This document shows positions 1 to 1,045 of a stretch of 42,873 nucleotides of DNA, one piece after another. Origin of the DNA: a virus. Taxonomy: Duplodnaviria > Heunggongvirae > Uroviricota > Caudoviricetes. The notes under the pieces were generated by a model. It was not told where the DNA came from and did not search any database. It saw only the letters and a program-made list of their open reading frames with translations. Both the position numbers and the translations under genes were made by a program. The stretch lies in IMG/VR virus record IMGVR_UViG_2897369580_000001. One strand, given 5' to 3'. The first letter of the stretch is position 1. Every line of letters begins with the position of its first letter.

Positions 1-321
1 TTACTCCAGAGACAGCCGAACCGAAAAACCGTTTTCAGCGAGCGTCAGACTCAGTGTGTTGATAGTCCAGTCCCGGTCCTCCTCGGTCCCGAAACCTTGA
101 GTTGTGACTTTGCATTCTGCTGTCAGCGACACTAAATCGAGCGTCGCTGGCGTCGTGTACGTCATAGAGAACTCTTTTTTAGCTGCACCGCCCTTGAGCC
201 CTGGTGCAGCTTCTTTCGCTGCGTCGAGCGACGGCTCAACTGCCGGCCATTCAATGACAGGATCGCCGCCACTACCTTGTCCGCAATTCTTTGATCTGCC
301 CAGTTGCTGTGTCGTGATATT
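1..321 (-). other. C-terminal segment of P2 gpD-like late control/tail protein, read in a different frame from the N-terminal ORF
   Basis: Own translation of minus strand ending at stop (tta at 1-3) gives ...EEDRDWTINTLSLTLAENGFSVRLSLE*, resembling the gpD C-terminus; frame differs from ORF 272..1045; junction lies in Gly/Ser-repeat coding DNA. Confidence 0.5.
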
Positions 322-1045
322 TAATCAGATACGTCGGTTCCGGATTTTCGCCACCGCTACCACTATCGCCACTTTGTCCATTTCTCGAATAGCCCCAGCT
401 GGAGTTATCACGACGAGTTAGCGTGTAGTGCTGGAGCGGAGCACCGCTAACAGATTCGCCCGCGCCGCGCGGCAGGAATATCCAGTACCCGCCCGCGGGT
501 TTACTCACCGCATCGAATCTCGTTGCGAGCCGCGACATCAGGTGCATATCTGACTCGCCGACCTGATCGAGTTGCGTGATAACATTGTCTGCAAACCGCT
601 TTGATACGCGTGGTTTTAGCCCATTATCGCTCGCTATTGTCGCAACGATATCGCTGACAGTGACGTCGCTCCAGGAACGAGTCTTTTTGCTCTGAACTGT
701 CGGAGATCCTTTTGCTGCGTTCATCGGAGCCGCTTTTGCTGTGAAATCAACTACCCGGGGTTCACCGCCACTGCTAGCACCGTCAACGATGTATATCCCT
801 TTATCAATTATCTGATTACCGAAACCGAGCCCAATACTGATTTTTACTCCGCGGGCCGGAATTTTCAGAGTTTCAGAAACTATTGCTACGCGGAGTTCGT
901 CTGTCTGTTTACTGGAGCCGCCGTAATCTGTCAGCGTGATATTGATCAAACCTTTTCTTATTTTATCCGTGATGTTTTTATTATCAGCAGATATATAAAA
1001 ATTAGGTTTCCACGCCTCCACGCCAGTATTTACGTAATCACTCAT
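272..1045 (-). CDS. Phage late control gene D protein (tail protein gpD-like), N-terminal portion; apparently frameshifted
   Basis: 257-aa ORF; last gene of a P2-order tail cluster (U-X-D); followed out of frame by a gpD-like C-terminus. Confidence 0.7.
   Translation of the reverse strand: MSDYVNTGVEAWKPNFYISADNKNITDKIRKGLINITLTDYGGSSKQTDELRVAIVSETLKIPARGVKISIGLGFGNQIIDKGIYIVDGASSGGEPRVVDFTAKAAPMNAAKGSPTVQSKKTRSWSDVTVSDIVATIASDNGLKPRVSKRFADNVITQLDQVGESDMHLMSRLATRFDAVSKPAGGYWIFLPRGAGESVSGAPLQHYTLTRRDNSSWGYSRNGQSGDSGSGGENPEPTYLIKYHDTATGQIKELRTR

Follow-up and report, generated by a model that had tools for sequence, protein, structure and literature searches.

A clonally inherited one-base insertion splits the tail gene D of a prophage in Escherichia coli ST131

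The DNA analyzed here (the window, 42,873 nucleotides, IMG/VR record IMGVR_UViG_2897369580_000001) begins with a gene that resembles the phage tail gene D but is divided between two reading frames of the minus strand. Is this split a genuine mutation, a site prone to slippage, or an error of assembly? The first-pass annotation, made from the letters alone, had offered all three explanations for an N-terminal open reading frame (ORF) at 272..1045 that stops at 272 and a gpD-like C-terminus encoded out of frame down to 1..3. Both frames were recovered here. The ORF list and its translation give, at 272..1045 on the minus strand, a truncated gpD-like baseplate hub of 257 amino acids (RefSeq WP_001296153.1), which starts with the ATG at window 1045 and ends with the TAG at 272-274, and frame-2 translation shows that a second minus-strand frame is open from around 324 to the TAA stop at 1-3. 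The split is a real one-base insertion that has been inherited, and it is neither an assembly error nor a slippage switch.

A megablast search with window positions 1-1300 retrieved four GenBank "phage" records, three of them identical to the window and one, ON470604, one base shorter. The shorter but otherwise identical sequence forms a single ORF of 347 amino acids, and ON470604 annotates it as a single 1044-nt gene. The insertion was located at window 277..278 (one of two T on the plus strand), which corresponds to AA at positions 768-769 of the minus-strand gene, by alignment with ON470604 (GGACAAGGTAG in the window versus GGACAGGTAG in ON470604) and by the BLAST differences against strains SaT040, ZH063, G749 and SA186. 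On the coding strand the window reads GGACAAGG, versus GGACAGG in the intact allele; the extra A is either of the two, between which the alignment cannot choose. The intact allele reads ACA GGT AGT GGC GGC GAT (T G S G G D), and its product has 347 residues. With the change of ACAGGT to ACAAGGT, ACA-GGT-AGT becomes ACA-AGG-TAG, so that Gly257 is replaced by Arg and followed directly by the premature TAG (272..274, minus strand). The truncated ORF is thus wild type in residues 1-256 and has Arg instead of Gly at residue 257. The out-of-frame remainder of the gene (1..276, minus strand) still carries the coding sequence for hub residues 257-347, followed by the natural TAA at 1-3. Its frame-2 product is identical to the C-terminus of the 347-residue intact protein and aligns residue for residue with the C-termini of full-length relatives, with P271, A276, G317, E322, D323, W326, L335 and G339 conserved in the aligned segment.

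Fold and gene order give good support, and the Pfam score weak support, for placing the D product in the gpD/gp44/gp27 family of baseplate hubs. In hmmscan, PF05954 (Phage_GPD) scored 23.8 bits with the intact protein and 22.4 bits with the truncated one, both below the cut-off of 30.1 bits, and the precomputed Pfam column gives PF05954.18 for nearly all homologues. A phmmer search matched the R2 pyocin hub chain 6u5h_C (E=2e-22). The out-of-frame C-terminal 107 amino acids matched nothing in the Pfam or NCBIfam scans, and the homology of this part is therefore shown by its alignment with full-length relatives. The AlphaFold (AF2) model was built from a 58-sequence alignment for an intact relative with 97% identity (P0001), not for the truncated product, and has a mean pLDDT of 84.9 and a pTM of 0.79. 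Foldseek matched this model to solved hubs with a probability of 1.00, E-values of 1e-13 to 1e-20 and TM scores of 0.6-0.7 over about 350-380 aligned columns. These hubs are R2 pyocin 6u5h_A, Mu gp44 (1wru and 9ki1_G), the phage P1 hub 9vzk_1, the MuSo2 protein 3cdd and T4 gp27 (1k28_D); several VgrG and extracellular injection-system spikes were matched as well. The predicted gp27-like fold spans the whole chain of the relative, and intact D is thus predicted to share its whole-length fold with the hubs of P2 (gpD), Mu (gp44), T4 (gp27) and R-type pyocins (PF05954, VgrG/Pvc8 family), although its sequence identity to characterized phage hubs is only about 25-35% and the window copy is truncated at residue 257 of 347. 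Among phage records, none beyond the four retrieved by megablast has more than 60% protein identity to D.

According to Pfam matches, with which the RefSeq annotation agrees, D sits at the end of a contractile-tail module, beside gpU and gpX. Upstream of it, Pfam matches identify the sheath, the tube, the tail chaperone E (PF10109), gpU and tail protein X. The gene for tail protein X lies immediately upstream of D (1049..1273, minus strand; PF05489, E=2e-15), and a gpU-like tail protein gene is found at 1435..1863 (minus strand; PF06995, E=3e-31). The gene at 1860..3500 (minus strand), encoding 546 amino acids without a family match, is a probable tape-measure gene by its position between the chaperone (PF10109) and gpU. 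The resulting order of sheath, tube, chaperone, tape measure, U, X and D is that of P2-type tail modules. No obvious P2-type TTTTTTG heptamer was seen in the E/E' chaperone region (window 3480-3720). The prophage combines this P2-type contractile-tail module with lambda-type head gene annotations, for which RefSeq uses the lambda-style names gpW, FI, head decoration protein and S49 peptidase; genes for the portal, the major capsid protein and the large terminase are annotated as well. The element occupies a site flanked by yecA and the tRNA-Leu/Cys/Gly genes, with the integrase gene beside tRNA-Leu.

Gp27-type hubs are trimers that occupy the center of the baseplate and serve as the platform for the spike and the wedges, and afterward for the tube. 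The insertion removes the last 90 residues of the D product, or 26% of the chain. In the model of the intact relative, residues 258-347 are well ordered (block-mean pLDDT 80-95) and form five beta-strands and a long helix. The predicted strand 251-256 ends exactly at residue 256, the last wild-type residue, and the shift at residue 257 falls in a GSGG turn predicted between two beta-strands. Lost with this turn would be strand 260-270, helix 273-289 and strands 292-299, 312-316, 325-336 and 339-346. In the 58-sequence alignment the lost segment contains the family-invariant residues A276 and W326 and the near-invariant residues G317 and G339. The truncated protein of 257 residues would be expected not to assemble into the hub trimer from which the baseplate and the tail are nucleated. 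In strains with the frameshift, the prophage is probably unable to build functional tails, and hence infectious tailed particles, even though the other tail genes and the head module are open. The structural genes of the window other than D are all open, with little sign of wider decay, and this speaks against extensive degradation of the prophage.

To count the two alleles in complete E. coli genomes, we used a 61-nt probe centered on the insertion site. The probe matched 432 genomes, 363 exactly (frameshift) and 69 with a gap of one base (intact), and the reciprocal probe for the intact allele gave the corresponding 69 and 363. The prophage copy of strain SaT040, which carries the intact allele, differs from the window at only nine places over about 41.6 kb. 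We then compared haplotypes in 40-kb regions, each divided equally between host flank and prophage, from four intact-allele strains with an ST131-type flank (SaT040, G749, ZH063 and SA186) and four frameshift strains (MNCRE44, 4/1-1, DFS.1 and Z135-7). The two groups are divided four to four by a T/C difference at window 3654 and by an A/G difference at window 6821, and a 2-nt indel in the host flank separates the same groups in the three intact-allele strains whose host flank was covered. Among nine aligned haplotypes the frameshift is fully linked to two prophage SNPs and to a host-flank indel. In the population, counts of 359/67 for the SNP at 6821 and 358/68 for that at 3654 compare with 363/69 for the frameshift, these figures being marginal totals and not co-occurrence in individual genomes.

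The assignment to clades by fimH covers five strains with published types, all taken from Table 1 of PMC4933990. D is intact in SaT040 (H22), G749 (H22) and ZH063 (H35), and is frameshifted in MNCRE44 (H30R1) and CD306 (H30S); the last strain also carries the linked tail-protein allele WP_000829621.1. Homologues with 60-97% identity occur in Escherichia, Salmonella, Enterobacter, Cronobacter and Citrobacter; their genes are undivided, with one ORF of 347-354 amino acids that covers 99-100% of the query, and the sole homologue cluster of 257 amino acids is the frameshift allele itself (P0009). The comparison with gpD of related prophages, which the first-pass annotation had named as a check, thus gave one ORF throughout, with no relative showing a two-ORF arrangement. 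The same intact sequence of 60 nt is also present in ETEC1738, which carries a more divergent relative of the prophage. Because this relative has the intact sequence and all homologues from other genera are single ORFs, the intact state is ancestral.

From these results we consider, with a probability of about 0.8, that the frameshift is a genuine, clonally inherited and probably inactivating insertion. A single event probably produced it on the branch toward the fimH30 (clade C) sublineage, when the prophage was already established in E. coli ST131, and the frameshift allele would then have been inherited vertically. Given the linkage of the alleles, the SNP counts and the fimH pattern, a single origin with vertical inheritance is the simplest reading. 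The inactivating mutation put forward in the first-pass annotation is borne out to this extent: 363 complete genomes share the allele, it is linked to neighboring SNPs, and all relatives have one ORF.

An error of sequencing or assembly would mean that one A is spurious and that the gene is in truth intact. The extra base is lacking in ON470604 and in 69 complete genomes, and other single-base indels occur in some PacBio-only assemblies of the prophage. However, it is present in 363 independent complete genomes that were produced in many laboratories and on many sequencing platforms, it lies in a run of two nucleotides and not in a homopolymer, and it travels with two SNPs and the host-flank indel; such an error has practically no chance of being the explanation, and was rejected on the allele counts and the linked variants. 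The second proposal, that repeats coding for Gly and Ser would toggle the gene by frequent indels, started from a correct observation, since a 14-nt Gly/Ser-coding motif, GGTAGYGGYGGCGA, does occur twice near the junction on the minus strand (263-276 and 348-361), where shuffled sequence gives an expectation of zero matches. The two copies flank the region, and ST131 contains both alleles. Copy 2 (263..276, minus strand; GGTAGTGGCGGCGA), recognized by pattern search and alignment, encodes GSGGD in the intact frame and holds the TAG in the shifted one. The copies are, however, dispersed, 85 nt apart, and the inserted A lies directly upstream of copy 2, beside it and outside any repeat. Tandem Repeats Finder, applied to 1..1100, found no tandem repeat around the insertion, its sole repeat being an unrelated 8-mer at 1009-1024, and the indel merely extends a run of one A to two. 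The sampled haplotypes showed no sign of repeated switching on and off, as the alleles follow the linked SNPs and the fimH sublineage in every strain checked, and the population counts of the linked SNPs are nearly equal to that of the frameshift. A contingency site is thus highly improbable. Nor did the placement of the frameshift within a Gly/Ser-repeat linker hold entirely. The flexible Gly/Ser-rich linker, defined by alignment gaps, pLDDT and the motif search, comprises residues ~222-236 (NGQSGDSGSGGENPE; 338..382, minus strand) and includes copy 1 of the motif; its length varies among relatives, and residues 225-232 have pLDDT values below 50 in the AlphaFold model. The insertion does adjoin a GSGG-coding motif, but at residue 257 it is outside this linker, about 60 nt downstream of it and 70-80 nt from copy 1.

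Two further explanations accept the insertion as real but would preserve some function. AGG is the rarest codon in E. coli, and +1 shifting both at AGG and at stop codons (prfB) is established. A ribosome moving +1 at ACA-AGG-UAG, a rare Arg codon followed by a stop, might therefore produce a fraction of full-length hub, with exactly the wild-type sequence if the shift occurred at ACA|A-GGU, or as a G257R variant if it occurred at AGG|U-AGU. Since a particle requires only few copies of the hub, little protein could suffice, and the downstream frame is fully intact in all aligned frameshift strains. The last point is expected in any case, given that the SaT040 copy and the window differ at only nine positions in 41.6 kb. 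With the programmed +1 sites of prfB and of AGG-AGG hungry codons, the D site shares an AGG directly before the stop and the +1 direction of the required shift. It differs from them in being a recent mutation of one clone, unconserved and absent from all relatives, in having no P-site codon that re-pairs (by base-pairing rules the P-site tRNA would re-pair poorly in +1, ACA to CAA and AGG to GGU), and in showing, on inspection of GAA UUG CGG ACA AGG UAG UGG, no upstream Shine-Dalgarno-like stimulator at prfB-type spacing. Neither a conserved two-frame arrangement in relatives nor a slippery codon with a stimulator in the sequence was thus found. We regard leaky recoding as unlikely, and it is a little more doubtful still that rare +1 decoding, restoring the wild-type hub or the G257R variant, makes the frameshift less than fully inactivating. 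If it did, the prophage of the ST131 fimH30 sublineage would release functional tails or virions at a low level, and the mutation would be an accidental throttle and not an off switch. The other explanation is that the N-terminal piece of 257 residues and a separately translated C-terminal piece form a working hub. An ORF of 54 amino acids does exist at 1..165, with its ATG at window 165, and is annotated in ON470596; it is the only ATG-initiated downstream ORF. It nevertheless lacks residues 258-293, and with them strand 260-270 and helix 273-289, is preceded by only a weak AAGAG motif, and no relative has the two-ORF arrangement, which makes a functional split gene exceedingly improbable.

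The inherited, probably inactivating insertion is best seen as ordinary lineage-specific decay of a prophage virion gene, a first step toward a cryptic element. As in cryptic and defective prophages of E. coli, a single point mutation that disables an essential virion gene has been clonally fixed and vertically inherited, and further lesions occur occasionally, here an IS1 in tail protein X (TUM2367) and an IS3-family element in the window. In contrast to those prophages, decay is at a very early stage: the clade has only one lesion in common, and elsewhere the prophage hardly differs from the copy with the intact allele. CD306, an H30S strain susceptible to fluoroquinolones, already carries the frameshift, which suggests that the prophage lost the ability to make tails, and was immobilized, before the pandemic expansion of H30. 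The extra A and its linked SNPs look like a possible simple marker distinguishing fimH30 (clade C) from H22/H35 strains of ST131.

The mutation is undescribed in the literature that we found, but is visible in public annotation as the 257-residue WP_001296153.1. PGAP does not mark the truncated D as a pseudogene, labeling it instead as an ordinary CDS, either "hypothetical protein" or "phage late control D family tail protein"; the ORF should be read as a frameshifted hub pseudogene and not as a "hypothetical protein". The four GenBank "phage" records were predicted by PHASTER in Illumina assemblies; they include the host gene yecA and do not represent isolated phages. Three of them (ON470596, ON470624 and ON470627) are titled complete phage genomes but are PHASTER regions of ~20-27 kb, and one that was inspected in detail begins inside the host gene yecA. 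Such PHASTER-derived "complete phage genomes" with the frameshift allele should not be counted as viable phages. The bioRxiv paper behind these records deals only with mixed induced lysates and is uninformative on this prophage. The EC958 genome papers do not mention the D gene, and our literature searches found no paper on this mutation and none relevant to the combination of ST131, prophage and leuZ.

Several other features of the prophage and its flanks were recognized in the course of the comparison. In TUM2367 (L013, 1474-2171) an IS1 interrupts the tail protein X gene, adjoining the already frameshifted D, as a secondary lesion of the tail module; strain 23556 likewise has an IS1 in this 1.3-kb region. 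An IS1 in tail protein X of a genome with the frameshift allele is consistent with relaxed constraint. Near the other end of the prophage, window 40016-41265 is an IS3-family element of 1250 bp with a transposase pair (orfA, 40891-41229, HTH_Tnp_1; orfB, 40046-40864, rve). Its insertion disrupts a small hypothetical gene situated shortly upstream of a DUF4224 gene and the integrase gene; the element is absent from the near-identical prophages of SaT040 and strain 4/1-1. Two strains with intact D carry single-base indels elsewhere in the tail module: in SaT040 (L004, 4362-6001) the tape-measure gene is split by a 1-nt deletion at window-equivalent 2740, and in G749 (L007, 24185-25686) the sheath gene is flagged as frameshifted; such indels may be genuine or may be consensus errors of PacBio-only assemblies.

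The relative in ETEC1738 (L009, 18801-19748) has an extra gene, annotated as encoding a prophage tail fiber N-terminal domain protein, between D and the terminal gene of 139 amino acids, and at the corresponding place the ST131 prophage shows a gap of ~166 nt; the ST131 prophage may have lost a second fiber gene. Window 24901-29276, between the late-gene regulator Q and the replication genes, contains a peptidase gene of the ImmA/IrrE family with adjacent hypothetical genes and, on the opposite strand, an LprI-family lysozyme-inhibitor gene, which may be accessory (moron or defense) cargo. In the host flanks, motB has an internal stop in ZH063 (L006, 3192-4118), and yecJ has an in-frame deletion of 9 nt in Z135-7 (L012, ~14759-14767).
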